Source: a virus. From it: a DNA stretch of 64,000 bases. Positions 28,921 through 55,447 of the stretch are shown here, piece after piece; position 1 is the stretch's first letter; the number at the start of each line of letters is the position of its first letter. The notes beneath the pieces are model-generated. The model saw nothing but the letters and a program-made list of their open reading frames with translations, was not told the DNA's origin and did not search any database. The stretch spans positions 64,001-128,000 of the IMG/VR virus record IMGVR_UViG_3300005805_009577; one strand, 5' to 3'. Both the position numbers and the translations under genes were made by a program.

Positions 28921-28935
28921 TCTTTTTTGGGTACG
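28921..28935 (+). promoter_or_regulatory. T-run-GTACG motif copy
   Basis: tcttttttggGTACG, intergenic, upstream of 28992. Confidence 0.65.
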
Positions 28936-28991
28936 TCTCTCCGGTGTCGTTCGTCTGCAAACATAATCTAAAATAATTGGAGAAAAATTTT

Positions 28992-29318
28992 ATGGGTCGC
29001 CCTCCTGCTGGCACTGGTATTGACATGGATCACTTCATTACTGTATGGATTGAGGCTTACAAGTCCGGAAAGAATCAAAGTGATGTTAGCCGAATCCTTG
29101 GAGTGACTCCTGCTGCTGTTTCAACCAAGGCTAAGAAGTTTCGTGAAATGGGCATTGAACTTCCCGAACTTCAGCGGTCTAGTGGCGTTAACACTGTGAA
29201 TGTGAGTGCGGCAAAGCAGTTAATGAGCCGTCTTATGAATGAAGTCAATCAGGAGACTGACCGACAGATCAAGGAAGTTGAAAAGAATGAGTTTGATGAT
29301 GGCGGAGATTTTCTGTGA
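28992..29318 (+). CDS. HTH-type DNA-binding protein (family member 1)
   Basis: NQSDVSRILGVTPAAVSTKAKKFREMGIELPEL; GGAG RBS supports start at 28992. Confidence 0.7.
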   Translation: MGRPPAGTGIDMDHFITVWIEAYKSGKNQSDVSRILGVTPAAVSTKAKKFREMGIELPELQRSSGVNTVNVSAAKQLMSRLMNEVNQETDRQIKEVEKNEFDDGGDFL

Positions 29319-30969
29319 ACAATGTAAGAAGTTTTCTCGAAAAAGGTTTTCCATGTAGGTCAATTACTATTAGATACCATATAAGTGGTGCTAGGGTTTC
29401 AATTAGCGACTTTGAACATGGAGAAGTAATTAGTCGAGTTAAATCTACCGTCGAACAAGCCCTTCAATCTTGTATGGATGATTTTGATGAAAGTATTAAG
29501 CTTAAAGTTTCTGAGAAGGTTGAGCGTTTAGAAAAAAAGAGAAAAGAGATAGAAAAGGAATTAAATTCTATTTCACGAGATATTAGTAGTCTTAAACTTA
29601 ATTATTTTAAGGATAAGTAATGTTATACTACGATGACAATTTTGGCGAATATAACATCGAAAGCGAAGAAGATATTGAGTTTTATCATGAAATGCAAAAA
29701 ATGTCCGTAGAAAAAATTTGCGTAGATTGTGGTAAAACTGTTCGAATAAAGTCTGATTATGAAGTTTGTAATAATTGTGCTGATCGTAGAGAGCGTGGAT
29801 TAGCGTATTAAGAGGTATAATTATGTTTTTTATTAACATAAACGGATACGAAGTTCCGGAAAATTATAGCGAAAAAAGCAAGAAAGTAATTAAAACTCTT
29901 TCAGAGTGTGGATGTGTAGAAGTTCAATTTGACGATGAAACAATTTTTGTTAGTAGTGAACTTTTAAGTTTTGCTGTTGAAAAGGGCGTAACAGCCTACA
30001 AAAAAGATTATAGTTTAATTCTTTGCGACAACCCTGTTAAACATACTTTTTAGGAGATTTGATATGAACATTAATGTTAATAAAAACTACGATAAACTCT
30101 CTGTGACGGTAAACGAATATTCTGATGACCCGAATGTTGATATTAAATTTTTGACCACCACACCAGATGATGTAACAAGTTCTTTTGATTTTATTAATAT
30201 AACTGTCTTTGACAAAGAATATAAAGAAAGTGCTAATATTACTTTTGCAAAAGACGCACTTGAAAAATTTGTTTGCAGGATGGAAAAAGCTATTAAGGCT
30301 TATAGGGAAAAAAATCTTATTTCTATCGAATCTTAATTTGGAGATAAAATGAAAAATAAAATTATAATGTGGATGGACGAAAATACAGGCAAGTATTATT
30401 CTTGTGAGGTCACTAAGAACTATAGAGTTGCTTTTGGAGATAATATCGAAGAATGCGTGCAAAACATCGAACCAGAAATTTACGAAAAGGCTTCTATTGC
30501 AAAAGATGTTGCTAAAAAAGTTGTTGCCAACACAGGCATGAGTGCTTTGGTTTTACATGTAACCAAATATAAAAGCTTTCCGCAAAATCAGACAAAAGAC
30601 AAGAAAGTAAAGATTGTCCATATGATTATGGGCAAGAATGAAAAGAATCGTGTTCGTAAGACCTTAGCTAATAGCTAGTTTTTAAAAGGGAAAAAATGAA
30701 TAATCAACAAAATGGTTGTGGTTTTTTGCTTGCAATGATTTTCGGTGCCGCCTTGTTATCTTCTATGATTCAATCTTGTAATGGTTCTTCAAGTAATTAT
30801 GTTCCTCAAAGTAACACAAATAGTTTTGAGCATAGATATGTAAAAGAACGGGTAAAATTAGAAGGATATTCTGACGCAGAAGCAAAACAAGCGGCAGACG
30901 CTATTATCCGGTTTCATGAGGCTCAAAAAGCCAGACAACGGTAAAATATTTTTTAAAATTACTTTAAAC

Positions 30970-31002
30970 AAAACCCATGCTATTTATAGCATGGGTTTTT
31001 TT
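30970..31002 (+). terminator. intrinsic terminator
   Basis: aaaacccatgcta/tagcatgggtttt stem plus T-run. Confidence 0.8.
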
Positions 31003-31047
31003 ATTAAAATTTTTTAATAATTTAATATATAAGTAGTGGAGAAAATT

Positions 31048-31407
31048 ATGAATTTTAACAAATTAAATAAAATAATTTCCGAAGACAAAACGTGGAAATT
31101 AGAAGAAGAAATGGCACCTAGCCTTCCAATGAATGGCCAAACGAACAGTCAGATAAATAATCCTGCCCAAGATATACGGGGCAATCTAAATATTCAAATG
31201 CTGACCAAATATCTTCCTAGCCAAGATCCTGTAAAGCTGAAGATTGCCATTTCTAATGTTATGAAGGGTAGCAGGCTGAACAACATACAGTTGATGTCTC
31301 TTGGAAATGCTTTTATTGATTTGTTAAAAGCCAATACCCAAGAAACTATGAAGGTCATGAATTTACTAAAAAGAGTTTCTATGGAAAATGATGGAGGACA
31401 AAATTAA
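31048..31407 (+). CDS. hypothetical protein with leader MNFNKLNKIISE
   Basis: Leader similarity to other candidate internal proteins; start moved to 31048. Confidence 0.55.
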   Translation: MNFNKLNKIISEDKTWKLEEEMAPSLPMNGQTNSQINNPAQDIRGNLNIQMLTKYLPSQDPVKLKIAISNVMKGSRLNNIQLMSLGNAFIDLLKANTQETMKVMNLLKRVSMENDGGQN

Positions 31408-31408
31408 A

Positions 31409-31573
31409 ATGAAAAAGTTTAATGATTGGATGAAAGAAAAAGCTTTGGGAATGAAAAAAGAACATCCACATAAAATAGAGGAACCAGGAACAGTGAAAGA
31501 TGTTCAAGTTAAGCCTGGCACTGTGGACGGCGATAAGTCAAAGCCAGTTAAAAAAGACAAAGAAAGTCTTTAA
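31409..31573 (+). CDS. small basic protein with leader MKKFNDWMKE
   Basis: GGAGG RBS upstream of 31409. Confidence 0.55.
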   Translation: MKKFNDWMKEKALGMKKEHPHKIEEPGTVKDVQVKPGTVDGDKSKPVKKDKESL

Positions 31574-31614
31574 TTTTTATTAGATAAAAAATATTTTTTT
31601 AATATAATAAGGTT

Positions 31615-32262
31615 ATGAAAATCAAACTAACCTTATTGCTTCTTTTTTTAGTTTTAGCTCTCGCTCTTAATGAGTACTACCAGAATAAATATAGCATAAA
31701 AAAGACTATAGAGACCGAAAAAAGCTTGTCTTTTTTAGTAGACAAAGAATTTTCCTTAATTAGAAAATCTTTAGTTCAAGGTAAATTCGAGGAAGAAATA
31801 TTAAAAATAAATAATGCCACTGTTTTAGAAAAAAAATGGAATGATTTAAATCTTTATTTAGAGAGGCCTTTAAGAAAAGACAGGTATTGGGATCTTAAAG
31901 GAAATATGATTGCTAAAATTAAAATAAATAATGATAACACAGGCAAAGAAGAAATAGAGATGAATCATAATATTGAAGTGGGAAGTTCAAATGTAAAAAT
32001 TTTAGCATCTTTAGAAAATCCTATTGAAAAAATAGGATTAACAACGCTAGAACAAGAAATTAAGTTAGAGCCTGGACAACAAAATAAAACAATTGCAAAC
32101 GTCCGTATAAAAATGAAGGTTAAAAGAATGATACCCAGCGTTATGGAAAAATATGCTCAAGAAAAGCTGGATTCTGCAGCAAACGATTATATAGAAAAAA
32201 CAAAGCATATAATAGAATCTATGCCTGAAACCAAGACAGGGATATTTATACAATTCAAATGA
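31615..32262 (+). CDS. signal-anchored hypothetical protein
   Basis: N-terminal hydrophobic LTLLLLFLVLALAL. Confidence 0.6.
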   Translation: MKIKLTLLLLFLVLALALNEYYQNKYSIKKTIETEKSLSFLVDKEFSLIRKSLVQGKFEEEILKINNATVLEKKWNDLNLYLERPLRKDRYWDLKGNMIAKIKINNDNTGKEEIEMNHNIEVGSSNVKILASLENPIEKIGLTTLEQEIKLEPGQQNKTIANVRIKMKVKRMIPSVMEKYAQEKLDSAANDYIEKTKHIIESMPETKTGIFIQFK

Positions 32263-32729
32263 ATAAAGAACAAGATTTTATAGTAAAAAATAATATTCAT
32301 AACAACTGGCAGGTTGTTCACCAGCACTTATTGCCAGAAGAAAAAGAAAAAAACTTTTGGAATCCTAAGACTTTTAATAAGTTAAGAGAATCAATATTTA
32401 ATAGGTTTAAAAATAGTATTGATGAAGAAAAAGAAGAAGATTGGATAAAATATAAAAAGCTAAATAACATTACAGATGCAAACCCCAAAAGAATAAAGTT
32501 TTGCTGGGAGACCGTTTTGCACAACGAGAAAATAAATAATAAAAATAAAATCGCTGGTGCTTCAGAGGTAGAGTTAGAATATTATGATGAAAGCAATAAA
32601 CTTGTAATAATTAAAGATCCTGTTATTGGTATAAGTTGGGATTATGACGAGCCCAAAGAAGGTTTGTGGATTGGAATTCCAGAAAAGTTGGCAGAAAAAT
32701 TTATAGCAATGGAAAGTTTTAAAAAATAA
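32259..32729 (+). CDS. hypothetical protein, IPxKLA C-terminal family
   Basis: Ends IGIPEKLAEKFIAMESFKK. Confidence 0.6.
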   Translation: MNKEQDFIVKNNIHNNWQVVHQHLLPEEKEKNFWNPKTFNKLRESIFNRFKNSIDEEKEEDWIKYKKLNNITDANPKRIKFCWETVLHNEKINNKNKIAGASEVELEYYDESNKLVIIKDPVIGISWDYDEPKEGLWIGIPEKLAEKFIAMESFKK

Positions 32730-32982
32730 ATACTATTTTAAAGCATGTATAAGCCATGCATATTAATAGTATCTTCCGCACTTTCTATTACGCCTTTAGA
32801 AAAAAATCAACCAATTAATTTAAAGGGCGATTATAGTTTAGAAGCTAAAATATATTTGGAAAAAAATCAAGAAAATAAGACAAAAAATATTAATGATATA
32901 CTTTATGAAATTATAGCAAAAGAAATTGAAGAAGGAATGCACGAAGAATCAATTGGTGAAGATTTAGAAGTTAAAAATAAAA

Positions 32983-33519
32983 ATGAAAAATGAATTTTGG
33001 TCTACTGCTAATTTTAAAAGATTGAAAAATGCACTATGGCAATTATACTGGGATGATTTTTTAATCCCTGCCTTTACCCATCGGGGCAAGGGATTTTCAG
33101 CTTCAGCCTCAGCAAGATCAGATTTTAAACATGAAGACATAGCTGCTGGTTCTTTGGCATTTGCAAACTGGAAAAAATATAAAGAAAAAAATAATATAAA
33201 GCCATCCAAGCCAAAAGTAAGAATCGAGGCTATTTATTACCCAAACAGCATAAGTGTAACTGCTGACGAGTATCGAAGTGTGGAAGAAGAGTATTACAAT
33301 AGCCAAGATGACGTTGTTGTAATACAAAATCCTCTTTATGCTTCTTTATGCACCTTGCGTGGAGTATCTAATAAATATGCAGCCAATGAATTTTTTAATC
33401 CAAATTCAACATGGGCTGAAAATGCTATCTCCACTGATTTAAATGAAAAATATATAGAAATACCAGAAAAATTTGCTAGACAGATTTTGGTTTTAAAAAG
33501 TTTTAAAATTAAGATTTGA
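32983..33519 (+). CDS. hypothetical protein, IPxKLA C-terminal family
   Basis: Ends IEIPEKFARQILVLKSFKIKI; FW...F.RL N-terminal segment shared with 32259. Confidence 0.6.
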   Translation: MKNEFWSTANFKRLKNALWQLYWDDFLIPAFTHRGKGFSASASARSDFKHEDIAAGSLAFANWKKYKEKNNIKPSKPKVRIEAIYYPNSISVTADEYRSVEEEYYNSQDDVVVIQNPLYASLCTLRGVSNKYAANEFFNPNSTWAENAISTDLNEKYIEIPEKFARQILVLKSFKIKI

Positions 33520-33860
33520 ATAATAAAAATTATATAATATAATAAACATTATGGAACAAATAATTACATTGCAAATTAGTAGAAAAGACGACACCCCAGC
33601 AAACGAATATAATTGGGCCGAACTTTTAAAATTAAATGAAGACGAAAGTGTCACGGTCATAGATCATTGGATGATTAGAGGCACTTTGCCTCCTTCTTCC
33701 GAATGCCAGAATAAATGCAAAAAAGACGAAGGTTTTGTCTCCCAAAAAACCCAGATAATAAAATGCAAAAAAGAAGGCTGTAGTTTTAAATGCAAAAAAC
33801 TACATGGGGAAAGTGACTCTTAATAAATATATGCTAAATTAAAAGACTTAATTACAAAAT

Positions 33861-33875
33861 CCTTTTTTGAGTACG
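33861..33875 (+). promoter_or_regulatory. T-run-GTACG motif copy
   Basis: ccttttttgaGTACG followed by hairpin ccggtc-gtgt-ggccgg. Confidence 0.65.
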
Positions 33876-33937
33876 TCTTAGGATTGTAGCCGGTCGTGTG
33901 GCCGGAAGGATTATAACTCTTGATAATGAGGTGATTT

Positions 33938-34177
33938 ATGGCTCGTGTTGATGCTATGTCTTTTGTGGATGCGTGGGTTAAGATTTATGAGCAGGGTGGC
34001 TCGCAGAGTGATGTTGCTCGTGAAATTGGCACTTCGGCCGCCAATGTTTCTACTCGTGCTAAGAAGTTGCGTGAGGCCGGAGTTGATCTGCCTGAACTCA
34101 AGGTTACTCGTACTGGCACTACGATTGACGTTGATTCGCTTAACGAGCGTCTTTCGGCTCGACTTGCGAAGGCTTGA
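33938..34177 (+). CDS. HTH-type DNA-binding protein (family member 2)
   Basis: SQSDVAREIGTSAANVSTRAKKLREAGVDLPEL; GAGGTG RBS. Confidence 0.75.
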   Translation: MARVDAMSFVDAWVKIYEQGGSQSDVAREIGTSAANVSTRAKKLREAGVDLPELKVTRTGTTIDVDSLNERLSARLAKA

Positions 34178-34206
34178 ACTTAAAGGGTGTAAATTTCACC
34201 CGTCCA

Positions 34207-34243
34207 CAACCCTGGGTTTTAAAAACCCAGGGTTGTTTTTTTT
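34207..34243 (+). terminator. intrinsic terminator
   Basis: caaccctgggtttt/aaaacccagggttg stem plus T-run. Confidence 0.85.
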
Positions 34244-34590
34244 ATAAACATCAAACATATGAATAATCTACTAGAAAAATTTGCCAAAGTTAAAAAAATA
34301 TCTATATTTGGGAAAAGGTGGTTTCAAAAAACATATGGAAACACTTACCATAGTTCCGAAATATATGTGAACGATAAACTTGTTCATAAAATAGAATTTT
34401 GCTATGGCTATGGAAGTCAATATGAATGGAATTCATTTACCTGGTTGAAGCAAAATGGTTATATTAAATTGTCAGAAAAAGATAAGCATTATTGCTTAGG
34501 TCGTTACTGCAGAGAAAATAATATAGAGCTTTGCAACGATGTTGTTGACGTAAACAGAAAAAAAGATCTTTAAAAGATTTAAGTGACGAG

Positions 34591-34606
34591 TCCTTTTTTG
34601 GGTACG
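34591..34606 (+). promoter_or_regulatory. T-run-GTACG motif copy
   Basis: tccttttttggGTACG upstream of 34644 (AGGAG RBS). Confidence 0.65.
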
Positions 34607-35999
34607 CCCTCTCTTTACGCAGATGGTTTACTAGGAGACAAATATGTTTAAAGCCGCTCCGGTGATATTTTTATCATTATCTTTAATTGGAAATATTGAA
34701 GGTATAAAAGAAAATAACATCAACCAAGTTAATAATGTTAATAAAAAAACTATTAAATTTTTAAATAAAAAGGCTACTTTTAAGCAACATTTAAAGGACA
34801 TAGAAAATCAATTCAACATATCTATTAAAATTGACAAACAGTCCCTTCAAAAACATGGCATTTCAATTAATCAAAGCATAGTGATTGAAGAAAAAGAATA
34901 TACATTTTCTGAATCACTGGATTTATTGACTACAAAAATTTGTATTTTTAATCGACAAAAAGTTGTTTTTTGGTCTATTGACGAAGTTAACAACGTAATG
35001 ATTTTTGGCAAATAATCAAGGAGGTTAAATTGGCTATTATTCAGTTGGTAGTTAGTACCTTGGGATTGCTTTGGTTTATTTTTGGCGATAACAGTATAGC
35101 AATTAAAAGAATGACGCCTATAAAGCAAACAAATTTGCAAATAGGAGTTATAAAACAGCCAATTCAAAATCAAAAAGCAGGAGTTCAGTGGATATACAGA
35201 GGAAGAGACAACTACTATTACTATTACAGTGATATTTCTAACACTTATTTATGCAGAGTAAATATAGTTACTGGTGCGGTTGACTATAAAATTTAGTCTT
35301 TAGTTTTATTGGCCAGCCTAATAAATGCATATGCTATAGAAAGTTCTATAAACATTATAATTGGCCAGCAAACTAATATTGGGTAAATTTGTTGCATTGT
35401 ACAATAATATAGTGATCTGACTTAAATTTTTATAGGTGTAAAATGAATAAAATTGTTTACGGAAAAGTTAGCGGAACAGGCGAATTTCCACTTGATATGC
35501 TTAGGTATGATGTTTGTTCTCCTGCTACAGAACAAGATAGTTATTTAATTTCACGCACATTTAATCTTGAATCAAGGTGTCGTGGTGTTTGGGAAATTTA
35601 TGTAAAAAGAATTCTTTTAGAGCATAAAAAAGGAATGAACACCTTCACTTATGATAGGTGGCGGAGTTTCGGCTGTAGAGTGGAAGAGACTAAGGATGGA
35701 ATTCACGGCCAACGTCAAGGAAACTTATTTTAAGGAAAAATAAATGTTTTTTGCACCAGATCATCATGCTAATATAAAGATAATGAAGTGGGTTGAATCG
35801 GCCATGCAAAGTGCCATGATAATTCAGTATGAAGTTTCAATGGGCAAAATTAATAAATGTCATTTTCAAACAATGATAAACAGCGTTTCTTACAATGTGA
35901 CCAAAGAAATTATTAAAGAAAAGACTCTATTAAGGTGCGAACCCAGCGTTAATTAGCACACAGGCTTGAAAAATTTTCACAATCTTCTATAATATTTTT

Positions 36000-36608
36000 A
36001 TGAATTCTGTTACTTTTTTAGGTGATGTTCATGGAAAGTATAAGAGACTCCATGAAATAATAAGAGAAAAAGAACGAAATCCTTTTATTGTTCAGGTTGG
36101 CGACTTTGGATTTGACTATGAAACTCTTAGAAATGTAGATCCAAAAAACTTCGTTATAGTAGGCGGAAATCACGATAATTATCAAAAAATAATTAACACT
36201 CCTCATTATTTAGGGGATTACGGATACACTAGTTTTAATGGGTTGGAATTTTTCTATTATCGGGGTGCTTATAGCATAGACAAACAATATCGAACTATTG
36301 GCATAGATTGGTGGAAAGAAGAACAGCTAAATATAGAGTTATTTATGAAAGCGAGAGAAGCATATAGAGAAATAAAACCCAAATTAATGGTAACGCATGA
36401 TTGTCCAGAATTTTTAGTAGGGCGGTATATAGGGCCGTATGGAAGAGTTTATCAAAATATTACCAACTGGGCTTTGCAAGAACTTTTTAATATACATCAG
36501 CCAGATACGTGGATTCATGGACACTATCATTTATCTAAAAAAACTATATATGATAAAACAACTTTTATATGTTTGGATGAATTAGAAGCATATAAAATGT
36601 CTTTTTAA
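36000..36608 (+). CDS. calcineurin-like metallophosphoesterase
   Basis: LGDVHG, QVGDFG, GGNHD, VTHDCP, WIHGHYH. Confidence 0.92.
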   Translation: MNSVTFLGDVHGKYKRLHEIIREKERNPFIVQVGDFGFDYETLRNVDPKNFVIVGGNHDNYQKIINTPHYLGDYGYTSFNGLEFFYYRGAYSIDKQYRTIGIDWWKEEQLNIELFMKAREAYREIKPKLMVTHDCPEFLVGRYIGPYGRVYQNITNWALQELFNIHQPDTWIHGHYHLSKKTIYDKTTFICLDELEAYKMSF

Positions 36609-36637
36609 AAAATCTTTTTAAAAAATTTTTAAATTTT

Positions 36638-36668
36638 AAACCAACTTTGTAAAAAGTTGGTTTTTTTT
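36638..36668 (+). terminator. intrinsic terminator
   Basis: aaaccaacttt/aaagttggttt stem plus T-run. Confidence 0.75.
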
Positions 36669-36714
36669 GTTACTTTAATTAATAAATAATATTAGAGTTA
36701 CATGGAGGTAAGTA

Positions 36715-38044: not shown

Positions 38045-38076
38045 AAAGCCTAGGCATTAATGCCTAGGCTTTTTTT
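38045..38076 (+). terminator. intrinsic terminator
   Basis: aagcctaggcat/atgcctaggctt stem plus T-run. Confidence 0.85.
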
Positions 38077-38100
38077 ATTTAAATTAAACTATATAATTTT

Positions 38101-39940: not shown

Positions 39941-39955
39941 CTTTCTTTGAGTACG
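39941..39955 (+). promoter_or_regulatory. T-run-GTACG motif copy
   Basis: ctttctttgaGTACG upstream of an unlisted small ORF 40007..40165 (MTLDRAAEIVK...). Confidence 0.6.
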
Positions 39956-40519
39956 CCCTCGTGTTGTCACCCGTGTTCTTTCTCACCTTAATTTAAAGGT
40001 ATAAAAATGACGCTTGACAGAGCAGCAGAAATTGTTAAGGTTCTTCCTATGGGTAGTATGAAGTTAGAATTGTTTGACCATTTTTGCGGATTGTTCAATC
40101 TTAATGAAAATAAAATTCTTAGAGACAAGTTTGTTATTGATTGTGGTTATAAGTTGGAGGGCTGAAACAAATGGAATGGAATAACTCTCATAAAAATCCC
40201 CCAACCGTTGGACAGAAGGTTTATTATTTTGGGGAGAATATCGGTATAGGGATTGGCCATTATTCATATGAAGAAAGAAGGATTATGGTTCCTTATACCT
40301 ACAATGATAAAAATGAAAAGGAATATACCAACAAAGAAATAGAACTCTGTCCCCATGTTTTTACTAATGTAAGTTTTGGAGTGGTGGATGCTTGTGATGC
40401 TCCTTTCTGGTATCCTTATGATGAAGAAAGAGCAAAAAGTTGGTGCCCTATTATTCCGAAAAAATATACAAAAGATTTGTATGATTGAAACTATATAAAA
40501 ATAGTTTTAAGGGCTAAAA

Positions 40520-41308: not shown

Positions 41309-41318
41309 ATTAAAACCT

Positions 41319-41332
41319 CTTTTTTGAGTACG
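41319..41332 (+). promoter_or_regulatory. T-run-GTACG motif copy
   Basis: cttttttgaGTACG upstream of 41374. Confidence 0.65.
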
Positions 41333-41373
41333 CCCGTCTTTTGCCCCCTCGCTATATCTATAGGTAATATACA

Positions 41374-42789
41374 ATGCAAATTAAAGACGAAAACGGAAAA
41401 GTTATTGCAAGTATTGATCTTCAAGAAGGTTGCTCTATTTCCGACCTTTTAAAGAGTATTTCTTCTGGCAAGAAAGAAAAGAATTCTCTTAATACTCTCA
41501 AGGAAATTAAAGAAAGTGAAGACAAAAAGCAAATAGTTTTCAATTTTAACGATGGCTTTATATGTTATGATCTGCCTACAAAGACTTTTGTTAGGAAAAA
41601 TGGACTGAAAATTGGTGAAGGCTCCTTTAAGAGCATCAAGCTTAATCTTAAAAATAAGATTGTAACTCTAAATCATAGGGAAAGAGATACTTTCTGGCTT
41701 GAGTTAAAAGAAAAGACAGATGTTGTTTGGATTAAGACATTTTTTAGTCTTATAGACATATGGGCTAATAACAAGCATAAGCAAGGTCATTGGCAAAGTG
41801 TTAGAGATAGAAATGCCAAGAATAAAATTCAAGTCTTGACTAAAGACAAAAAGTTTTTTGACTCGCTAGAAGCATTTTCTAAGTTGACAAAAATTCAGTC
41901 TTTGAATGAAGACGATCTTAAGAGTCTTTATGATAATCTTCTTGAAATTAGCAACAAAGAAAATAAAGAAGACAAAAGTGCTCTAGGTTACAGCGTGAGA
42001 ATAAGTCCAAAAAGCACTATAGATAAATGGTTCATTGAAAGGTGTGACAAAGCTGTATCAGAAAACTATTCTAATGGCGAATCCTTAATTAATCACATGG
42101 GCGATTACATCAAGTGTAGTACGCATAAGGTAAAAGACTTATTTCAGTATGTATTTGAAGAGTACAATGGAGTGATTGCTTTTAAGCAAATAGAAAAAAT
42201 CAAGAAGTTAATTGGTTTTGGCTATGAGCCTAAAAGGTTGATGGACTATCTTTATAGAGACATTTATAATCAGGGCTTAGAATTAGATTTAGAAACTAGG
42301 TGGCATAATTCTGATTGTGCACTTTCTATGCTCTGTGATTATGCAAGCATGAATCAAGATATGAATCTAGTATATGAAAAGTATCCTAGGTATCTTTCTA
42401 CGTATCATGACGTTACGCAAAAGAATTATAAGATTGAAGAAGATAAAATAATTAAAGAAAAATTTCATAAAAGGGTTCTAGGGTTAAAAGAACAAGGATT
42501 AGAATATTCTGATAAGGAGTATTCTATTGTTCTTCCAAAGAATGGCGAAGAATTAGTTATCGAAGGACAAGATCTAAGTCATTGCGTTGCTAGTTACTAT
42601 AAACGAATGGCTTGTGGCGAAACTGCTGTCGTGTTTCTTAGAAAGAATAGCAGTATCAATCAAAGCCTTGTAACCATAGAAATTAAAGATAATGACATAG
42701 TACAAGCAAAAGGTAAAAACAACTCTAATCCGCAAGAAAAAGAAATAGAATTCATCAACAAGTATAAAAATTATTTACTAAAAAAGTAA
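41374..42789 (+). CDS. PcfJ-like domain protein (paralog B)
   Basis: YPRYLSTYHD, IVLPKNGEELVIEGQDLSHCVASY, VFLRK, SLVTIEI, VQAKGKNN. Confidence 0.8.
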   Translation: MQIKDENGKVIASIDLQEGCSISDLLKSISSGKKEKNSLNTLKEIKESEDKKQIVFNFNDGFICYDLPTKTFVRKNGLKIGEGSFKSIKLNLKNKIVTLNHRERDTFWLELKEKTDVVWIKTFFSLIDIWANNKHKQGHWQSVRDRNAKNKIQVLTKDKKFFDSLEAFSKLTKIQSLNEDDLKSLYDNLLEISNKENKEDKSALGYSVRISPKSTIDKWFIERCDKAVSENYSNGESLINHMGDYIKCSTHKVKDLFQYVFEEYNGVIAFKQIEKIKKLIGFGYEPKRLMDYLYRDIYNQGLELDLETRWHNSDCALSMLCDYASMNQDMNLVYEKYPRYLSTYHDVTQKNYKIEEDKIIKEKFHKRVLGLKEQGLEYSDKEYSIVLPKNGEELVIEGQDLSHCVASYYKRMACGETAVVFLRKNSSINQSLVTIEIKDNDIVQAKGKNNSNPQEKEIEFINKYKNYLLKK

Positions 42790-44656: not shown

Positions 44657-44687
44657 CACTTAGAATTAAATTTGATAAATTAATTAA

Positions 44688-45539: not shown

Positions 45540-45661
45540 GATTGCTATTGTTTTAATTGTTCTCTTTTTCGTATCATTTTTAACTTTATTTTGGTATTTC
45601 ATTATATCCACGGGCATACGATCTATAATTAAGTCTGTAAAAAATAAGAAAGGCAAATAAA

Positions 45662-46603: not shown

Positions 46604-46620
46604 ACAATTGTGTGGGCAGC

Positions 46621-46635
46621 CCTTTTTTGGGTACG
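46621..46635 (+). promoter_or_regulatory. T-run-GTACG motif copy
   Basis: ccttttttggGTACG followed by a GC-rich structured leader. Confidence 0.65.
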
Positions 46636-46736
46636 GTCGTAGGGGGAGCGGCTGAATAAGGGCGTGGAGTCGCCCCGAAAGATTTGCATTTATTCATTAT
46701 TTTTTTTAAAAATGCAAAACGAATAGGGGCGGAAAA

Positions 46737-46997
46737 ATGAAAACAGAATTTGATATTTATAGAGACAAGGTTTGGAATTATCTCAAAAGCGAATATAAAG
46801 AGTCAATGGATCTAATGTATGACCATTTATCTAAGGATCCATTAAACACTGTGTTAAGTAGAGAAACGGTAAACAACATTCTTCTCAATAACATTGAATA
46901 TCTTATCAAAGATTGCTATAAGGACGAAATTAGCATACCCTTTTGTGCAAACAAAGTGTTATTATTGTTTTCTTTTTGTGGAATGAAGAGAAAATAA
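46737..46997 (+). CDS. hypothetical protein (D.YR.KVW.Y family)
   Basis: FDIYRDKVWNYLKSEY matches LDTYRKKVWEYIKLEY of 52559. Confidence 0.65.
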   Translation: MKTEFDIYRDKVWNYLKSEYKESMDLMYDHLSKDPLNTVLSRETVNNILLNNIEYLIKDCYKDEISIPFCANKVLLLFSFCGMKRK

Positions 46998-47261
46998 TTG
47001 AATAAAGCCTTAGAGTTTTTTGAATTTTTTATTTATGTTTTTGTGTTGGTGATAGTTTATTTTATCTTAAAAAATTTATAAAGGATAATAAATGACAATT
47101 ATTAAAGTCAAGAGAGTTTTTCGAAATAATGTTTGTGGTTGCGGCAGCGGCAAAAAAAGTAAAATTTGTTGTAAAAGCGTAAATGAATACAATGTAATAA
47201 ATAATAGCAACATTGAAGAAAAGCCTATTGACAACAAAGATAATTCCGAGGATAATACCTA

Positions 47262-47492
47262 ATGTTCTTTCCAAATGAAGATAGTGATTTGAATATGTTT
47301 GTTGATACTTGGATGGAAGCAAGCATTCAAGATAAAGATAACATAGAAATTAATGTTTGCAAAATGCTTAAAATTAATATGAAAGAAGCAATTCGTAGGG
47401 CAAGTGCTATTAATAATCAAGGAATAAAGCTTCCTTATTATGATCGAAAGCATATGAAAAAATTGCGTAAGTTAACAGAAAAAGACATTTAA
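47262..47492 (+). CDS. divergent HTH family member 3
   Basis: FVDTWMEA...GIKLP aligns with the 28992 and 33938 proteins. Confidence 0.5.
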   Translation: MFFPNEDSDLNMFVDTWMEASIQDKDNIEINVCKMLKINMKEAIRRASAINNQGIKLPYYDRKHMKKLRKLTEKDI

Positions 47493-48110
47493 TTTTAAGA
47501 TTGCCAAAAGGACAAAGTATGAAAAATTTTAGTGTTCCAAAATACACTGTAATAAAGTATCTTCGTGACAAGAAGCATAATCCAAGGGGAGTTCTTGTTG
47601 CAGTTAAACTTGCTAGCGGGGAAATTAGCATTCATTATAGTTATTGCAACAACAAACTTGATACTTTTAACAAGACCACTGCACTTAAAATTGCTGTAAA
47701 TCGTGCACTATCTAATAAACTTAACTCGTGTATTCCGCCTAGGCAGGTGATTAAAGAGATTGATCAATTTAACGACAGAGTAAGTCGTTATTATCGCGTA
47801 AATAAAAATGATCTTCTTACATGGTGGGGCGATGATGAATTTGTTAGAATGCCAGTTGACAAAGAGGCAATTGAAGAGTATAAACAAAGCTTCACAAGGC
47901 AATAAAAATGAAACTAACTTTATTTTTCTTAATCATTCTTGGTTTTTGTTTGTTTGTTAATTTTACTTGGTATCTATTTTTGCAATTGTTTAGGATGTTC
48001 GATAATTATATGATGGACAAACAATTCAAAAAAATTAATTATGAAAAAATGAAATGCGAGAATGGAAAAACTTGGTATGTAGGCTAGTTTTTCTTTGTCA
48101 ATAAAAAAGC

Positions 48111-48143
48111 AAAAAAGAGGAGAGAAATCTCCTCTTTTTTTTT
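48111..48143 (+). terminator. intrinsic terminator
   Basis: aaaaaagaggaga/tctcctctttttt stem. Confidence 0.8.
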
Positions 48144-48699
48144 ATCTATTGACAAAATATAAGTTTAAATTAAAATAAAAAAGCAAAAGGAAAAACAAAA
48201 TGATAGAAAAAGCGATTCTTGAAAAAGGACAAACTAGTCCTGTAAACAAAATATCTTTGCTTGAAAAAACAAGCAAATTATATGAAATATTTAGTAAAAA
48301 AATAGATGATATAACTGAAAACTCTGGTTTTAACTCTGCCATTAAGCTTAAAGAATATTTAGACTCTTTGTTGCCGGATGTAGTAGATGCCTTTGAATTT
48401 GGAATGATACACTTAATAAACACCGGTCAGGCGGATAATTGCTATGCTATTATCAACCCTTATAATCCAAATAAAGTTTTATTAATAAAGAGAGATTACG
48501 CTGAAAATATAATTAAAAATGGTATTTTATAATTTGAAATAATTTATTCATATCTTTAATATATAAAAGATATGAATGAAATAAATGACTTAGGACTAAT
48601 GAAAGACTATGGACAATTTATAATGTCCATAGTGCTTTTATTTTATGGTTTTCTTTATCAATATTTAGAAAATCAATATTTAGAAATAGAGGAATAAAA

Positions 48700-48933
48700 A
48701 TGAAATTTTCTTTATGGTTGGAAAAAAGAGTTAGAAATCAAAAAACCCAAACTAAAATGCCTAGAGTTAAAAACGGCACAGAAAGAGTTGTATCTGATGC
48801 TAACATGAGAATAAGCCAAATGGTCGGCCATGGTCAATATAAAACACATGGTAAGGCCGGAAAAATGAATTATAAAAAAGATAAAGGTTCTAGATCAGAA
48901 AAAAATAGACTAGCAATAACAGACCAGCAATAA
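48700..48933 (+). CDS. small basic protein with leader MKFSLWLE
   Basis: GAGGA RBS; K/R-rich. Confidence 0.65.
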   Translation: MKFSLWLEKRVRNQKTQTKMPRVKNGTERVVSDANMRISQMVGHGQYKTHGKAGKMNYKKDKGSRSEKNRLAITDQQ

Positions 48934-48946
48934 TATAGGAGAATAC

Positions 48947-49246
48947 ATGAAAACATTTTACGAGTGGTTAATGATTGAGCAAAAAGAATTTTTATTATTT
49001 GAAGATGGTCAAAAAAAATTGTATAGAGAAGTGGTGTCAAAACTAAGAAAAGCAGGATTTGAATTTGTAAGAGTGGCAAATGATGCACACGACGTATGGA
49101 TAAAAGACGGAACTGAAGTGAATGTATTGAGAAATGTTAGAGGAAATCCAAATATAATATTTAATCAGACAATAAGAGCTTGGGAAAACACCAAAACAAG
49201 AAATCAAGAGTTAAAAAATAAAAGAGAAAAAGTTGCTTCTAAGTAG
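48947..49246 (+). CDS. HicA-like (dsRBD-fold) protein with leader MKTFYEWLMIE
   Basis: YREVVSKLRKAGFEFVRVANDAHDVWIKDGTEVNV resembles HicA R-E-V..L...GF...R..GSH..W. Confidence 0.5.
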   Translation: MKTFYEWLMIEQKEFLLFEDGQKKLYREVVSKLRKAGFEFVRVANDAHDVWIKDGTEVNVLRNVRGNPNIIFNQTIRAWENTKTRNQELKNKREKVASK

Positions 49247-50062
49247 CAACACGGACTTGATTGTTTATTCTTGACAAAAATGCCACAACTCTGCTATAAA
49301 CCATCTAGGAAATTTTATGATATTTTTCATGATATTTTTCTCTGGACTTTTGATAGGGTTTTTTCTTGGTTTTATTTACTCTATAGTTGCTACCTGCAAT
49401 ATGTTAGATGAATATAGCCAAGAAATAGATAGAAAAGAAAAATGAAATATAAAAATTTAATTGGAAAAAAAGTTCAAATAATTGCCAAAAGAAAAGCGTG
49501 TGAATTTTTAACAAAATTAAACTTTGAATCTTACTCTTTTGAAGCAACGCTACAAGAAGTTAATAAAGATTATATTGTAATAAAAAAACAAAGCGGCATG
49601 ATAGGCTATTTTCCAATTGAAGACAAATATGTAGCTATTGAAAAAATAATTTTGGTTTAAAATGTCTAAAAAACCCAAAAAACATGTATGTAGTATTTGT
49701 GGTGCCAACACAGATATTTATACAAATGTGCATTCTAAAAATAAATTTATAGATAACAACTTTTACGACAAAGTTTGTTTTACATGTTATTTTGTTCCAA
49801 AAACAATCCATCAAACATATAATAGAGAAGGCCTAGTGGCAGAGGAAACAGAACTGGAGTATTGTAGTGAAAATTTACACACTCCAAAAGAGCTTGTTTT
49901 GGGAGGAAGTGCAGAAAATATTAAAGAAGCAAAAAGAAGTTATGAATCTATAGTTAATCTTTGCAAAAAAAAGAAAAAAAATAAAACTAAATTGTTAAGA
50001 CCAAAACCAGAGTGGCGTATAGTTTAAAAATAAGGATTGTGTTATGAATAATATATAACAAC

Positions 50063-50871
50063 ATGAATGTTTTGTTTGTAAATGATACTTCTGCATATCA
50101 TTGTGGTAGTTTCTTAACCTGTAGAGTGTTGACTAGTTTGATTAAAAAAAAATGTAGCTCACTAGAAATATTAAGACGTAGCACCAAAAAAAAATGAGTT
50201 TTTATGATATAATAATTATAAATGGAGAGGGATCTTTTCATCATAACAAAACGCATAAACCAGCCCAAGGGATATATTATTGTGCTGAAGAGTTCAAGAA
50301 AATAGGCAAAAAAGTTTTTTTAATAAATACTGTAATTCATGAAATAACTTATGACTTGAGTATATTTGATGCTATTTTTACCAGGGAAAGTTTAAGTTCT
50401 CAGGGTGAACATAAAGTGGTTAATGATGCTTGTTTTTATAATATATTAGATAATTCAAAAAACAAAGAAAACTATGTTTTATTTTTAGACAGTGTATTGC
50501 CCGAAGTTAATAAAAAAATTTTAAAAGAATATGAAAGCTATGCTGGTGAAAAGAAATATATAAAAATGGATGAAAATAAATTTGACCTCGATAAGTTTAT
50601 AAAAGTTTGCCAGAATGCAAGTTGTATTATAACAGGAAGGTATCATGGTGTAGTTTTTTCTATTATGTGTGAAAAAAAGTTCATAGCACTTGAGTCAAAT
50701 ACTCATAAAATATCAGGGCTTTTAAAAGATTTAGATTTATTACAAAATTTAACAGATGACTTAAGCGATTTGGAAAAAAAAATATATTTATCTAAAAAAC
50801 CAAAAGTAGATATTCATAAAATAAAAAAAGATATAGAGGATATGATTGATTTTTGTTTGATGAAATTATAA
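50063..50871 (+). pseudogene. polysaccharide pyruvyl transferase-like gene split by a frameshift in an A9 run (may still be functional)
   Basis: 50063 MNVLFVNDTSAYHCGS stops at TGA 50195; one extra A in 50186-50194 fuses it to IIINGEGSFHH...ITGRYHG...ESNTHKISGL. Confidence 0.6.
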
Positions 50872-50974
50872 AGAGATATGAACAAACCATATGCCGTCTT
50901 ATGAAGAAGAATTTGTTAATAAATTAATTTCTATGCATCAAAATGTAAATATTATTAATAAGTAAATTTTTCCA

Positions 50975-51682
50975 ATGAATGAAATATTATTAAAAATAAA
51001 AGAAGTTAATCAAAATAAATGCTATGAAGAATGGCAAAAGCTTATATTTAATAAAAATGTTTGTATAGTTGGACAATCAAGTTACTTATTAAACCAAGAA
51101 CAAGGCTCAAAAATAGACGCTTATGACATCGTAGTCAGAATTAATGAGGCTTTTATTGATATTCAAGAATACAAAAAAGATTATGGAGAAAGATACGATA
51201 TATTATACATAACAAATGATCATAGAATGTATGATTCTGGATTTTTAATAAATAATTATGATAAAATCATTAATAAAATGGTGAGTTTATTCGGGGTTCC
51301 AGAATACCACTATACTTATAAAAGTTTTCAAAAATTTTACCAACTTTTAAGTAATAAAAATAGCATAATAAATAATGATGCAAAAAGAAAATTGGTAAAA
51401 GATTACTTGAATAATAAATTTCCTACTACTGGATTTTTTGCTATTTTAGATATTCTTTCGTTTGGGCCTGAATCTTTGTATATTCCAGGATTTTGTTTTT
51501 ATCTAGACTACACAAGAATTTTAAAAAGATTCGAAGGATATAACAAGCCGGTAAATTCCATACATAACTCTATAACAGAAATAAATATTTTTAAGAATCT
51601 TAGAAAAGAGCATAAAATAATAGTAGATGATTACACTGAAATAAAATTATCGGAATTTAAAAATAATTCTCTAAAAAATTAA
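50975..51682 (+). CDS. GT29 (sialyltransferase-like) family protein
   Basis: VCIVGQSSYLLNQEQGSKIDAYDIVVRIN (sialylmotif L-like); PTTGFFAI (motif S-like); HNSITE. Confidence 0.7.
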   Translation: MNEILLKIKEVNQNKCYEEWQKLIFNKNVCIVGQSSYLLNQEQGSKIDAYDIVVRINEAFIDIQEYKKDYGERYDILYITNDHRMYDSGFLINNYDKIINKMVSLFGVPEYHYTYKSFQKFYQLLSNKNSIINNDAKRKLVKDYLNNKFPTTGFFAILDILSFGPESLYIPGFCFYLDYTRILKRFEGYNKPVNSIHNSITEINIFKNLRKEHKIIVDDYTEIKLSEFKNNSLKN

Positions 51683-51746
51683 AAGTGTATATGGGTACGC
51701 TTTTTAAGTGTTGTGACCGTATTGTAATCTTTAACAAATTATAAAA

Positions 51747-52184
51747 ATGAACTTAAATATAGATTTTGAAAACGAAGATGTTTGTAAAAAGCTTCAAAAG
51801 ATTTTTCTTGATAAGATACTAGAAATATCCGAGAACATTAAGAGTACAGGCAATAAAAAAGAAGATGAAAAAGCATTTCAAGAAGAATATTCTAAATATC
51901 TTTTTAAACACGGTATATTTGTAATGGGAATAAAACATGTTTACAAATATTGTAATTCTAAAACACCTCATTATATTTGTATAGAAAATCCCGAAGGCGA
52001 TCTTTTTGAAAAAACTAATTGGAATGTAGATCCGCCTACAGAAGAAAATGAGTTGAAATTTCTTTTAAACCGCTCAGATGGTAGTTTTAGAAAAATTCTT
52101 ACAGACAGAATAATTGATGATTTCTGGTATACTATTCCGACAAAACTTGCAGAAAAGGCACTTGCTTTAGGAAAATTGCCTTAA
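51747..52184 (+). CDS. hypothetical protein, IPxKLA C-terminal family
   Basis: Ends YTIPTKLAEKALALGKLP; partial GGTACG motif at 51694. Confidence 0.6.
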   Translation: MNLNIDFENEDVCKKLQKIFLDKILEISENIKSTGNKKEDEKAFQEEYSKYLFKHGIFVMGIKHVYKYCNSKTPHYICIENPEGDLFEKTNWNVDPPTEENELKFLLNRSDGSFRKILTDRIIDDFWYTIPTKLAEKALALGKLP

Positions 52185-52478
52185 TGCACACTAAGAATTT
52201 GTTATGAAAAACAAAACAATTTTAGAAGAATTTAAACTTTGCATTTGTGGAAAGAAAAAAGTTTTCGAATTAGATGCTTTTGCATATTGTGACCCATCTT
52301 TTGCGATTGATGCAAATATAATAAAAATCAGATACTGTGGGAATAATGAGTGCTATAACAAACTAATTTCAGAAAATTTAAAAAACGAAGAAGCGTTTTA
52401 TATAAATATGCATGAATTTTAAAAAATGGTTTGTGGAATATAAAACATCTTAAAAAATAGGAATACAAAGTTACCGGA

Positions 52479-52493
52479 CTTTTTTGGAGTACG
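52479..52493 (+). promoter_or_regulatory. T-run-GTACG motif copy
   Basis: cttttttggaGTACG; lies inside the track's TTG-extended ORF, true start probably 52559. Confidence 0.6.
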
Positions 52494-52558
52494 CCCTCCT
52501 GTTATGGTCTGCGGTTTACGGCCAAGAAGTTTTTTTACTCTTACCTTTTAATATCAAA

Positions 52559-52813
52559 ATGAGCATTGATCTTGATACTTATCGTAAAAAGGTTTGGGAA
52601 TATATTAAATTAGAATATAATGAAACGACAGAGCGTTTTAATGAAACTGCTATGATAGCACATCAAAACTATGTAAGTGTTCTCAGAAGCAGCATAGATC
52701 AGTGTATAGAAGAGCATTATAGAATAAATGATAGTCTTGGAAATGTCGCAAGCATTATAACAAAAGTTTATTTGATTGATTTTATCGAAAACAGAGGCTA
52801 CTCAATAGGCTAA
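52559..52813 (+). CDS. hypothetical protein (D.YR.KVW.Y family)
   Basis: MSIDLDTYRKKVWEY; paralog of 46737. Confidence 0.65.
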   Translation: MSIDLDTYRKKVWEYIKLEYNETTERFNETAMIAHQNYVSVLRSSIDQCIEEHYRINDSLGNVASIITKVYLIDFIENRGYSIG

Positions 52814-52816
52814 ATC

Positions 52817-53626
52817 ATGCCCGTCCAATTTAATTATAAAATTTACGCTACTATCGAAAAACAAGACAAAACACTAGAGCCTTTTATCTCCAAAAGCAAT
52901 AAGAGTAGTTATGAATATTCTAAAAGGGTCTTAAACCGACGCTGGCGGCCAGCAGAAGATATTATTTTAGATTGCTGTAGTAATCATTGGGCATATTATG
53001 ATAGTGCCGAATATGTTTATTTATATGCCAAAAATGTGATCAAAAAACGCTGGCCAGAGGGCGAAAAAGCTTTAATTGATTTTTATTCTAAGAGTAGATA
53101 TACCAAAACTAAACCAGAAGCACTAACTCTTTATGCCAAATACGTAATTAAAGGCCGCTGGAGAGAAGTAGAGTCTTTTATTCTTCAAGGAAATCAAATT
53201 GGAAATTACCTTGGAATATTAAAAAATCCAACAGATATTAAAGAATTTCAAAATGCAATACAACTTCATGCTCTAAAAGGCGTCGAAGCCGCTATAAACT
53301 TTAATACTTGGAAGCCTAATTTTAGTTTTAAAATTCCAGGGAAAAAAGCATTTGATGTAATGGTGGTGCGAAACCTTTATAAAGATCATATACAAAGAAG
53401 TGACAGGTCTCCAGATTATTTGGTTTTTCAACAAACAGAATGGTTGGATTTAGCAAAAGCTTATCATAACAAGAATCATTGTAGAACTAAACTTGGCTGT
53501 CATAGTTTAATTGATTTAAATGCAGAAGAAATTAGCAAAAATGTAACTTGGAATAATAATAGAAGGTATTATTATACTCCAAAAGATAAGATTCCAAAGG
53601 TTGAATTAAAGGTTAGTTCAAAGTGA
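52817..53626 (+). CDS. WPEAE-repeat hypothetical protein
   Basis: Three Y(A/S)K.V(I/L)..RW..(A/G/V)E repeats. Confidence 0.6.
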   Translation: MPVQFNYKIYATIEKQDKTLEPFISKSNKSSYEYSKRVLNRRWRPAEDIILDCCSNHWAYYDSAEYVYLYAKNVIKKRWPEGEKALIDFYSKSRYTKTKPEALTLYAKYVIKGRWREVESFILQGNQIGNYLGILKNPTDIKEFQNAIQLHALKGVEAAINFNTWKPNFSFKIPGKKAFDVMVVRNLYKDHIQRSDRSPDYLVFQQTEWLDLAKAYHNKNHCRTKLGCHSLIDLNAEEISKNVTWNNNRRYYYTPKDKIPKVELKVSSK

Positions 53627-53948
53627 CTTACGAAGAGTTAATAAATTGGTTTGATCTTTTTGAAAATGAAATAGTAACAAAAAGAAAGTTACTTAGAGGA
53701 TATGTTTTTTCTGGAGCGAGAATTGAAGTTTTTTCAGATGGCGGAGTAAGTATTGTTTTGACCCCTGGGGTTAGAGGGAAAACTAAAGAGGAAAGAAGTT
53801 GGGATGCTTATCGCCAACTAACTGACGAAAGTCCAGACCGAGAACTTTTTATTGATCTTGAAAGAATTGAATTAGAAAAAGTGGTTCGCGGAGAAAGGAT
53901 TATTTCCGAAACAGATTGGACTTGGACAGACGAAGAATAAATGATAGA

Positions 53949-54173
53949 ATGTCATGGAAGACAAAAATGAAAGAAAAAGTATTAGATTTTTTGAGAAATA
54001 AATTTAATCAACCAATAGATGAAAACTCATTTCTTGCTGAATTTAGTGAAGACAGCATGAGTAGAGTGGAAATTCTTTTTGAACTAGAGCGGTTGATTGG
54101 CAAAAAATTAAACGAAGAAGATATTTTAAACATTGAAACAGTTCAAGATTTAATTAATGTGGTGAGCAAGTGA
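53949..54173 (+). CDS. acyl carrier protein-like
   Basis: EDSMSRVEILFELE (DS phosphopantetheine site) and IETVQDLINVV, as in ACP. Confidence 0.75.
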   Translation: MSWKTKMKEKVLDFLRNKFNQPIDENSFLAEFSEDSMSRVEILFELERLIGKKLNEEDILNIETVQDLINVVSK

Positions 54174-54930
54174 GCAAAAAATCTGAGAAAGAAATTTTTA
54201 TTTTAGGAATGGTTTTAATAGCATTGGCTATAGGTTCTTATATTTTGCAAATACAAATGGAATTAAGAAAAATTAGAGCCCAAAAAAATATTTCTTATTT
54301 CGAATATACCTTAACCAACTTAAAATAAATAAAAGCATGCTTTTAGAAAATAAAAAGATAATATCTTTCAAAAAAGAAATTAGTGTTAAAGAGTTATGGG
54401 ATAGCATAAAAAATGAAGTTTACGAAATAGAAATTGAAACATATACAGTCGGAACTACTTATAATTTATATAAAATAAACAATTATAAAGTTAACAGAAT
54501 AGCAAGTAACTTTTTTAAATTAGATTATTTAAGTTTTCATTATAACTCTAATGGTGTAAATATTACCTGGGAATTTCCTTTAAACAGTATTGCAAAAAGA
54601 TCCGATGATGGCTTTATTTTAATTAATAGGCTTGATGGCGATGAATACTTTGTTAGTTTTTTTAAGAGAGAAAGAATTGTTGTTTAACTTAATATGAATT
54701 CAGATCTAAAAACTTTTATAAATCCAATAAAAGTGTCCGGAGCCGAAATTAAAGTCGGTGATATTTTCATACTAAACGAACATTTCCAAGCAAAAGTAAA
54801 AAGCATAAAAAGCTTATACCCAAAAGATTCAGAAATTATAATAAATTTTGAATTAGGTAGTGAAAATAATTTGCCTATAATAATTAACGGCAATGAATCT
54901 TATTCTATAAGGCCTTGTTAAGTTTGATGG

Positions 54931-54945
54931 TCTTTTCGGGGTACG
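54931..54945 (+). promoter_or_regulatory. T-run-GTACG motif copy
   Basis: tcttttcgggGTACG upstream of 54989. Confidence 0.65.
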
Positions 54946-54988
54946 GCCGGTAGTTGGTAGTCGAGAGAACAATACAAGGAACATTAAA

Positions 54989-55204
54989 ATGGCGTCGGTT
55001 ATTGTTGGAGAAAATATTGACCGTTTTCGTCTCCTTACTATTGCTAGTGCTTTGCGACTTGAAAGCAAAGGGCTTAAGGGCAAGATTAAGGCAAGTGTAA
55101 TTGCTCGACAAATTCTTAAGGCTAACGGAATTGTTCCTGCTAAACTGCTGGTAGAACTTTGCGAGCAGTTTAAGAACTTTGTTGTTGAAAAGAACAAGGA
55201 ATAA
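54989..55204 (+). CDS. hypothetical small protein
   Basis: AAGGA RBS; T-ending codon bias like other motif-headed genes. Confidence 0.6.
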   Translation: MASVIVGENIDRFRLLTIASALRLESKGLKGKIKASVIARQILKANGIVPAKLLVELCEQFKNFVVEKNKE

Positions 55205-55323
55205 AGAGTGAATAATAACATTGTTTTTTTACTTGATGAAATTTTTTACGTTCCCGGCTGGTTGCAGACCCTCTTGATCGAAAGTTTGATTGACGGTAAA
55301 ATGATTGTGGTTGATTAAAAAAC

Positions 55324-55396
55324 GGCCCCATAGTATAACGGTTCAGTATATCGGGCTTTCATCCCGAAGATCGGAGTTCGATTCTCCGTGGGGTCA
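55324..55396 (+). tRNA. tRNA-Glu(TTC)
   Basis: ggcccca/tggggtc acceptor stem; tcggg-ctTTCat-cccga anticodon arm; T-arm with ttcgatt loop. Confidence 0.93.
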
Positions 55397-55431
55397 TTTT
55401 AAAAATTAAATTAAAAGGTTTAAACGAAAAG

Positions 55432-55447
55432 CCCTTTTCGGGGTACG
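55432..55447 (+). promoter_or_regulatory. T-run-GTACG motif copy
   Basis: cccttttcgggGTACG between the two tRNAs. Confidence 0.65.

Follow-up and report, generated by a model that had tools for sequence, protein, structure and literature searches.

The element and its sites in the window

We analysed a window of 64,000 nucleotides (nt), bases 64001-128000 of the 181,145-bp IMG/VR virus record IMGVR_UViG_3300005805_009577 (G000), in which a recurrent intergenic motif with the core GTACG very probably marks a promoter class of the phage itself. The record has a GC content of 30% and a CheckV completeness of ~78%, and no terminal repeats were found. Nearly all genes up to ~143 kb of the record lie on the + strand, and its content includes rIIA, tRNAs and many small open reading frames (ORFs). 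A close cultured relative of the phage was not found: 20 kb searched by megablast gave no match among 50,697 phage records, and IMG/VR scans with two single proteins, the phage sigma factor described below and a PcfJ-like protein, returned no close relative.

Motif positions are numbered from the G of GTACG as 0. Sites were scored with a weight matrix of 45 columns, anchored on GTACG and iterated until convergence, with a threshold of at least 14 bits. The copies discussed here are listed below with the neighbouring genes, several of which encode helix-turn-helix (HTH) proteins; protein lengths are in amino acids (aa).

15285..15310, + strand: weaker-class site, 16.8 bits; ATG of a 78-aa gene (15310-15546) at position 15
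17584..17609, + strand: weaker-class site, 21.8 bits; before a 93-aa gene (17647)
25534..25559, + strand: core-only copy of uncertain status, GGTACG-N9-TG, <8 bits
28921..28946, + strand: full site, 38.9 bits; C-T6-GG-GTACG, GTG at 13-15; before a 108-aa HTH-like gene (28992)
33861..33886, + strand: full site, 37.6 bits; TTG at 13-15; before a 79-aa gene of a small HTH family (33938)
34592..34617, + strand: full site, 35.3 bits; before a 123-aa gene (34644)
39941..39966, + strand: full site, 38.6 bits; TTG at 13-15; before a 52-aa ORF (40007)
41318..41343, + strand: full site, 34.3 bits; before a PcfJ-like 471-aa gene (41374), whose orthologue in the related record G003 has the G003-lineage motif
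46621..46646, + strand: full site, 36.6 bits; then a leader of 95 nt, GC-rich and structured, before an 86-aa ORF (46737)
51685..51710, + strand: degenerate site, 13.0 bits; GGGTACGCT, TG at 14-15, no T-tract; before a 145-aa gene (51747)
52479..52504, + strand: full site, 35.0 bits; before an 84-aa ORF (52559)
54931..54956, + strand: full site (CTTTTCGGGGTACG), 37.4 bits; TTG at 13-15; before a 71-aa gene (54989), with a motif also at the G003 orthologue
55433..55484, + strand: full site, 43.9 bits; between tRNA-Glu and tRNA-Lys (55523)
58034..58059, + strand: degenerate site, 9.5 bits; GGTACGCT-N6-TTG, no T-tract
62078..62103, + strand: degenerate site, 11.9 bits; GGTACGCT-N6-TTG, no T-tract; before a 140-aa gene (62168)

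The nine full copies that an earlier note on this DNA had reported, ending at 28935, 33875, 34606, 39955, 41332, 46635, 52493, 54945 and 55447, are all present at those positions. They are intergenic and on the + strand, as it had said, each 13-40 nt past an upstream stop codon or tRNA-Glu, and each precedes the next gene or, in the last case, tRNA-Lys (55523). Its core-only copies also exist, with the positions it gave marking their starts and not their ends. Four of the six (25543, 51694, 58043, 62087) fit GGTACG-N9-TG; the copy at 15294 is AGTACG with TG at the same distance, and that at 8816 has no TG there. The matrix scores the copies at 51699, 58048 and 62092, all of which read GGTACGCT-N6-TTG, at 9.5-13 bits, and it adds two window sites, 15299 and 17598, the latter overlooked before.

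Within the window, CTTTTTNNNGTACG with at most one mismatch occurs 11 times against 1.7 expected, and RGTACG, expected 9.7 times, occurs 23 times, of which 20 are on the + strand. The enrichment extends to the whole record, where the matrix finds 45 sites on the + strand and none on the - strand at or above the threshold (~0.1 expected); ten first-order Markov simulations, which served as background, yielded 1 match in total. All 45 sites are intergenic and oriented like the genes, and GGTACG ranks first in an unsupervised count of 6-mers in upstream regions.

The consensus, an A-rich stretch followed by CC-TTTT-n-GGG-GTACG-(G/T)(C/T)-N5-GGTTG-t, is longer than had been described and includes a conserved downstream TTG at a fixed distance, which the earlier note had missed. 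Its core is nearly invariant (T1 and A2, 99%; G0, C3 and G4, 98%). Strong sites, of 30-45 bits, span 92.9 to 142.4 kb of the record, and those at 7 to 82 kb are looser, retaining TTTT, GTACG and the downstream TG. The motif matches neither the sigma-70 nor the sigma-54 consensus, as the earlier note had said: it contains no -35/-10 consensus, and although GGTACG and TTG(c) resemble the boxes of the sigma-54 consensus (GG-N10-GC; TGGCACG-N4-TTGC), their spacing is 4 bp too long.

The GC-rich zone behind the core was likewise confirmed (GC 0.45-0.56 over -10 to +30, compared with 0.30 for the genome), but the small hairpins said to occur there often were not. The mean fold z-score downstream is 0.05, with z below -1.5 in 3 of 27 sites. 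Upstream, where the mean z is -0.57, no significant hairpin was found at any of the 11 window sites of at least 14 bits (folds of -0.4 to -5.6 kcal/mol). Ten of these have z between -0.7 and +1.0, and the remaining one, 17598 (z -2.34), forms a weak A/U-only stem of -4.4 kcal/mol; upstream hairpins are restricted to some copies in an array at 139-142 kb, plus 7498. A conserved RNA hairpin was rejected on these z-scores, downstream and upstream. The leader at 46646-46740, behind the site ending at 46635, has a long-range fold of -25.8 kcal/mol (z -2.55), in which GUCGCCCC is paired with GGGGCGG immediately 5' of the start codon at 46737; this leader may be a translational switch or a small RNA.

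The genes downstream of the motif comprise rIIA, a ligase-like gene, an AAA ATPase, PcfJ-like proteins, many small HTH and ORFan genes and tRNA-Lys; no structural gene is among them. The PcfJ-like paralogues at 21948-23282 and 41374-42789, of which the motif heads only the second, both have as best match the G003 gene 151322 (58% and 35% identity), which carries the G003 version of the motif. On the - strand, at G000:C1 ~146400-146550 and 149030-149130, two genes are preceded by a shared element of ~40 nt (CTTTCTCTAATGGTCGGCAAATAAAACGTTAACAGTTTT-like), which may be a different regulatory signal for the block of opposite orientation.

Separate TTGACA..TATAAT promoters exist alongside the motif, as had been noted: twenty near-consensus TTGACA-N16-18-TATAAT sequences lie on the + strand, and a perfect TTGACA-N18-TATAAT stands at 25586, downstream of the core-only copy 25534..25559. 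Two such promoters (window 55456 and genome 140621) reuse the motif's own TTGAC as their -35. One of them belongs to the site 55433..55484, whose downstream TTGACG is also the -35 of a sigma-70-like TTGACG-N17-TATAAT (55456-55484). Across 55324-55596 of the window the order is tRNA-Glu, motif, overlapping TTGACG-N17-TATAAT promoter and tRNA-Lys, and from this arrangement tRNA-Lys appears to have tandem promoters of two different classes. As a general model, a TTG serving as the -35 of a downstream promoter was rejected, because genes that begin 21-42 nt past GTACG leave no room for it; it holds for the tandem cases only.

A phage sigma factor and the motif in relatives

In six-frame searches of the record, one gene exceeded the Pfam cut-offs for both Sigma70_r2 (29.6 bits) and Sigma70_r4 (28.9 bits). 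It encodes 300 aa (G000:C1:23328-24230) and lies 40 kb before the window. Group 1/2 (primary-like) sigmas give the best alignment to a profile of its family, in their regions 2 and 4.2. Region 2.3 retains the FKFSTY block and region 2.4 is altered, the next residues being NVLQT; in Escherichia coli the block is followed by WWIRQ. The changed residues of region 2.4 would suit an altered -10 specificity. In an alignment, the residue after the conserved KFSTY is Cys in the sigmas of phages with GTACG and Tyr or Phe in the sigma of the relative G002 (GTACCC) and several others; to judge from this alignment, it may be a specificity determinant.

Homologues of this sigma occur in uncultured material only, often on contigs of 130-590 kb, the closest being 63-68% identical. 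A tblastn search of the 50,697 phage records gave weak partial matches only, leaving the family without a cultured member. No copy of the motif lies upstream of the sigma gene itself, and matches to a consensus promoter there are no commoner than in shuffles. A T7-type polymerase (PF00940) was not found in the 181 kb, a search in which control genomes also gave no match and the record is ~78% complete. Immediately ahead of another motif site, G000:C1:45851-46594 encodes a 247-aa protein with two HTH domains (HTH_3; HTH_23 or sigma region 4-like), a candidate for co-regulating these promoters.

Nine IMG/VR loci were retrieved as relatives by sigma alignment. Counted on the gene strand and the other strand, GGTACG-N9-TG occurs 26 and 0 times in G000, 21 and 0 times in G003 and 12 and 1 times in G001 (where the sigma lies on the reverse strand, so that the raw counts are 1 forward and 12 reverse), with reversed-pattern controls at 0-3. 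The sigmas of G001, G002 and G003 are 52%, 47% and 42% identical to that of G000. In G002 (381 kb) GGTACG is absent and the top upstream word is TTGTACCCTA; TTGTACCCTA-N6-TG occurs 81 times on the + and 13 times on the - strand, with TG at 14-15. This G002 signal, also written AAATAATTGTACCCTA-N6-TG (81 + / 13 -), precedes many genes and is dense at 272-310 kb, and in four G002 sites AAGGAG begins exactly at position 15. The sites of G003 follow aaGTTTCyTCCyG-GTACG-CT-N7-TG. Exact TTGACA is found in 4 of 37 of them, always at offset -21, so that 16 bp separate it from TACGCT; other offsets have none. Four records whose sigmas are 28-34% identical show no motif enrichment. An exact-pattern scan of IMG/VR with CTTTTNGGGGTACG-N9-TG gave single chance-level matches in unrelated contigs only.

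The frame GTAC-N10-TG is thus common to the closer sigma clade, and the adjoining 10-bp box is lineage-dependent (CTTTTnGGG, GTTTCCTCCC, AAATAATT). The motif also stays with particular genes. In a hand count, the G001 orthologues of motif-led G000 units had GTACG at most 160 nt upstream in 8 of 12 cases, compared with ~4 of 90 for genes without the motif; those that keep it include rIIA, a 341-aa gene, an AAA_5 ATPase and a small HTH gene. Several G003 orthologues are also motif-led, the PcfJ-like gene among them.

Predicted start site and reading of the motif

All 45 sites have a purine at position 15, preceded by T at position 14 in 77-78% of them. Transcription usually starts at a purine (+1) behind a pyrimidine (-1); T14 and the purine at 15 match this rule, and we counted them in favour of a start at 15. 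Shine-Dalgarno purine runs in four genomes almost never start before position 13, and in nine sites they start exactly at 15. At the site 34592..34617 the Shine-Dalgarno sequence stands at position 31, so transcription must start before it. Several genes begin just 21-42 nt past GTACG, which requires a start point inside or just behind the motif. The 78-aa gene at 15310-15546 (phrog_30788, E 5e-18), with its ATG exactly at position 15, lacks a Shine-Dalgarno sequence and is preceded in frame by a TAG 6 nt upstream, features that make it a candidate for a leaderless message. Similar arrangements, less certain, are seen at G000 52735 and G003 49577.

We consider it very probable that the motif represents a phage-specific promoter class. 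This reading has good support in the strand rule, the intergenic position, the fixed geometry, the conservation in related phages and the existence of a phage sigma gene, all of which, like the enrichment, were computed here. From these data we infer a start at the motif, together with its exact point, the protein that reads it and its timing. G-TAC-G would lie in the -10 region, T1-A2 corresponding to T-12/A-11 of a TAnnnT-type hexamer, and transcription would start ~10 nt past GTACG, at the invariant purine 15 behind T14. The GC-rich stretch would then be the discriminator plus the first part of the 5' leader, and the lineage-dependent CC-TTTT-n-GGG box would occupy the spacer, from about -25 to -16. 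As the reader we favour, with somewhat better than even confidence, the core RNA polymerase of the host together with the sigma-70-family factor that the phage encodes. The motif would accordingly be a second, middle class, switched on after the sigma-70-like TTGACA/TATAAT promoters. The earlier note had suggested a phage-specific early promoter or operator class; the promoter class finds good support on the grounds just given, and as to timing, middle would be more likely than early if the phage sigma reads the motif, because that sigma must be made first.

Several points weigh against this proposal. The G000 sites lack a normally spaced -35 element, only 42% of them have T at the -7 equivalent (position 6), and a start at 15, the ninth base past the putative hexamer, would be about as far away as is normal. 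The boundary seen at 15 for Shine-Dalgarno runs may reflect only the 3' edge of the conserved element, and in one G002 site such a sequence already stands at position 7. Sigma and motif are linked by co-occurrence within one clade, for which shared ancestry could account, and the part missing from the ~78% complete record could encode another polymerase or factor.

The main rival, which we regard as unlikely, is that the host holoenzyme with its primary sigma reads the promoter, helped by a phage activator or appropriator that acts on the upstream box in the manner of MotA/AsiA, and that the phage sigma serves another gene class. The -10 of T4 middle promoters is a loose TAnnnT, and TACGCT (G003), TACCCT (G002) and TACGKY (G000) all fit it. 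The upstream box varies by lineage, as a factor-binding site would, and activator candidates are at hand in the amplified small HTH proteins, whose genes stand directly behind many sites, and in the multi-HTH protein G000:C1:45851-46594, 247 aa with two HTH domains and encoded beside a site. Host sigma-70, however, does not require the 98% invariant G0, C3 and G4, and only 42% of G000 sites have T at the -7 equivalent. A search that was not exhaustive identified no MotA or AsiA homologue. Another point against this rival is that the GTAC core follows the sigma clade: all four records with sigmas at least 42% identical have it, and none of the four at 34% or less does.

That the motif is mainly a recombination joint for cassette exchange, similar to the promoter/stem-loop (PeSL) cassettes of T4-type phages and with only secondary promoter activity, seems very unlikely to us, even though the sites do head small ORFan-rich units in a plastic region. 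Only ~14-26 bp are conserved and the flanks are not, which is short for homologous exchange; the stem-loop and sigma-70 consensus of PeSL are absent in the window; and the motif stays with orthologous genes at 40-80% protein identity, as a regulatory signal would. Gaps relative to G001 gave no signal of breakpoints at the motif, being non-syntenic in 23 of 26 cases with it and 58 of 61 without it, a comparison in which the relatives are too diverged. Very unlikely as well is an RNA-level element (acting in read-through transcripts as a processing site, as a 5' stabiliser or as a translational operator, and creating or marking 5' ends near position 15), for although the GC-rich zone, occasional structured leaders such as 46646-46740 (z -2.55) and a Shine-Dalgarno boundary compatible with any element ending at 15 would suit it, no fold is conserved (mean z 0.05 downstream and -0.57 upstream, non-significant at the window sites), Rfam matched three tRNAs and no other family, a T-tract and A-rich DNA 5' of the core make up half of what is conserved, and the exact TTGACA at promoter spacing in G003 would be meaningless in RNA.

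Comparison with known promoter systems

Full-text literature searches for the motif consensus or the sigma family found nothing relevant, and we compared the element with better-known arrangements. PeSL cassettes of the T4-type phages RB49 and phi1 combine an E. coli sigma-70 consensus promoter with a stable terminator stem-loop, and their copies recombine, the marks of which are indels between close relatives and mini-circles (Arbiol et al. 2010, PMC2839356). The likeness lies in a repeated intergenic signal just past a stop codon, in AT-rich DNA, among small ORFan genes of a one-directional plastic region. The analogy drawn in the earlier note nevertheless fails on both of the features defined by sequence: the motif contains no sigma-70 consensus, its window copies lack a terminator stem-loop, and none of the 11 window sites of at least 14 bits has a significant hairpin. 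A bolder combination, which we rate as decidedly unlikely, is that an undescribed sigma clade of large uncultured phages (135 kb to >381 kb) reads GTAC-N10-TG with boxes rewritten per lineage, and that the same signals act as cassette-exchange joints, a non-sigma-70 counterpart of PeSL shuffling.

The late promoters of T4, read with gp55, consist of a -10 element only (TATAAATA), and the motif similarly has no recognisable -35. It differs in that the sigma here keeps region 4, the relative G003 has TTGACA at normal spacing in some sites, and the genes served are non-structural. Occurrences of T4-type late TATAAATA in the record show no strand or position pattern. T4 middle promoters, which pair a MotA box at -30 with the TAnnnT -10 and depend on sigma appropriation by AsiA, resemble the motif in other ways: both have a loose TAnnnT-like -10 and a phage-specific upstream box in place of the normal -35, and both serve non-structural genes including rIIA. 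The box described here, however, abuts the -10 region, whereas that of T4 is centred at -30. In addition, the motif has extra invariant G, C and G that sigma-70 does not need, and the phage encodes a full sigma, regions 2 and 4 included.

The assignment proposed here would provide a promoter consensus and a predicted start for a sigma family known only from metagenomes of very large phages, and would place ~45 genes of this phage in one regulon. The shared GTAC-N10-TG frame with its lineage-specific boxes offers a natural series for the evolution of sigma specificity, and the operon and timing annotation of uncultured jumbo phages would improve. Phage sigmas that read promoter sets of their own are well known, and this phage probably adds an example. 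Such sigma-70-family promoter classes are those of Bacillus phage SPO1 (gp28, gp33/34) and coliphage phiEco32 (gp36). Phages of the phiEco32 type are the subject of PMC4331800. Both classes share with the present case a phage sigma and a phage-wide, strand-specific, non-host consensus before a subset of genes, and the host-type promoters alongside suggest a cascade here as well. The consensus itself, as predicted from sequence, is unrelated to theirs: a GTACG core, a TG start motif at a fixed distance and a T-tract/GGG box, with no -35.

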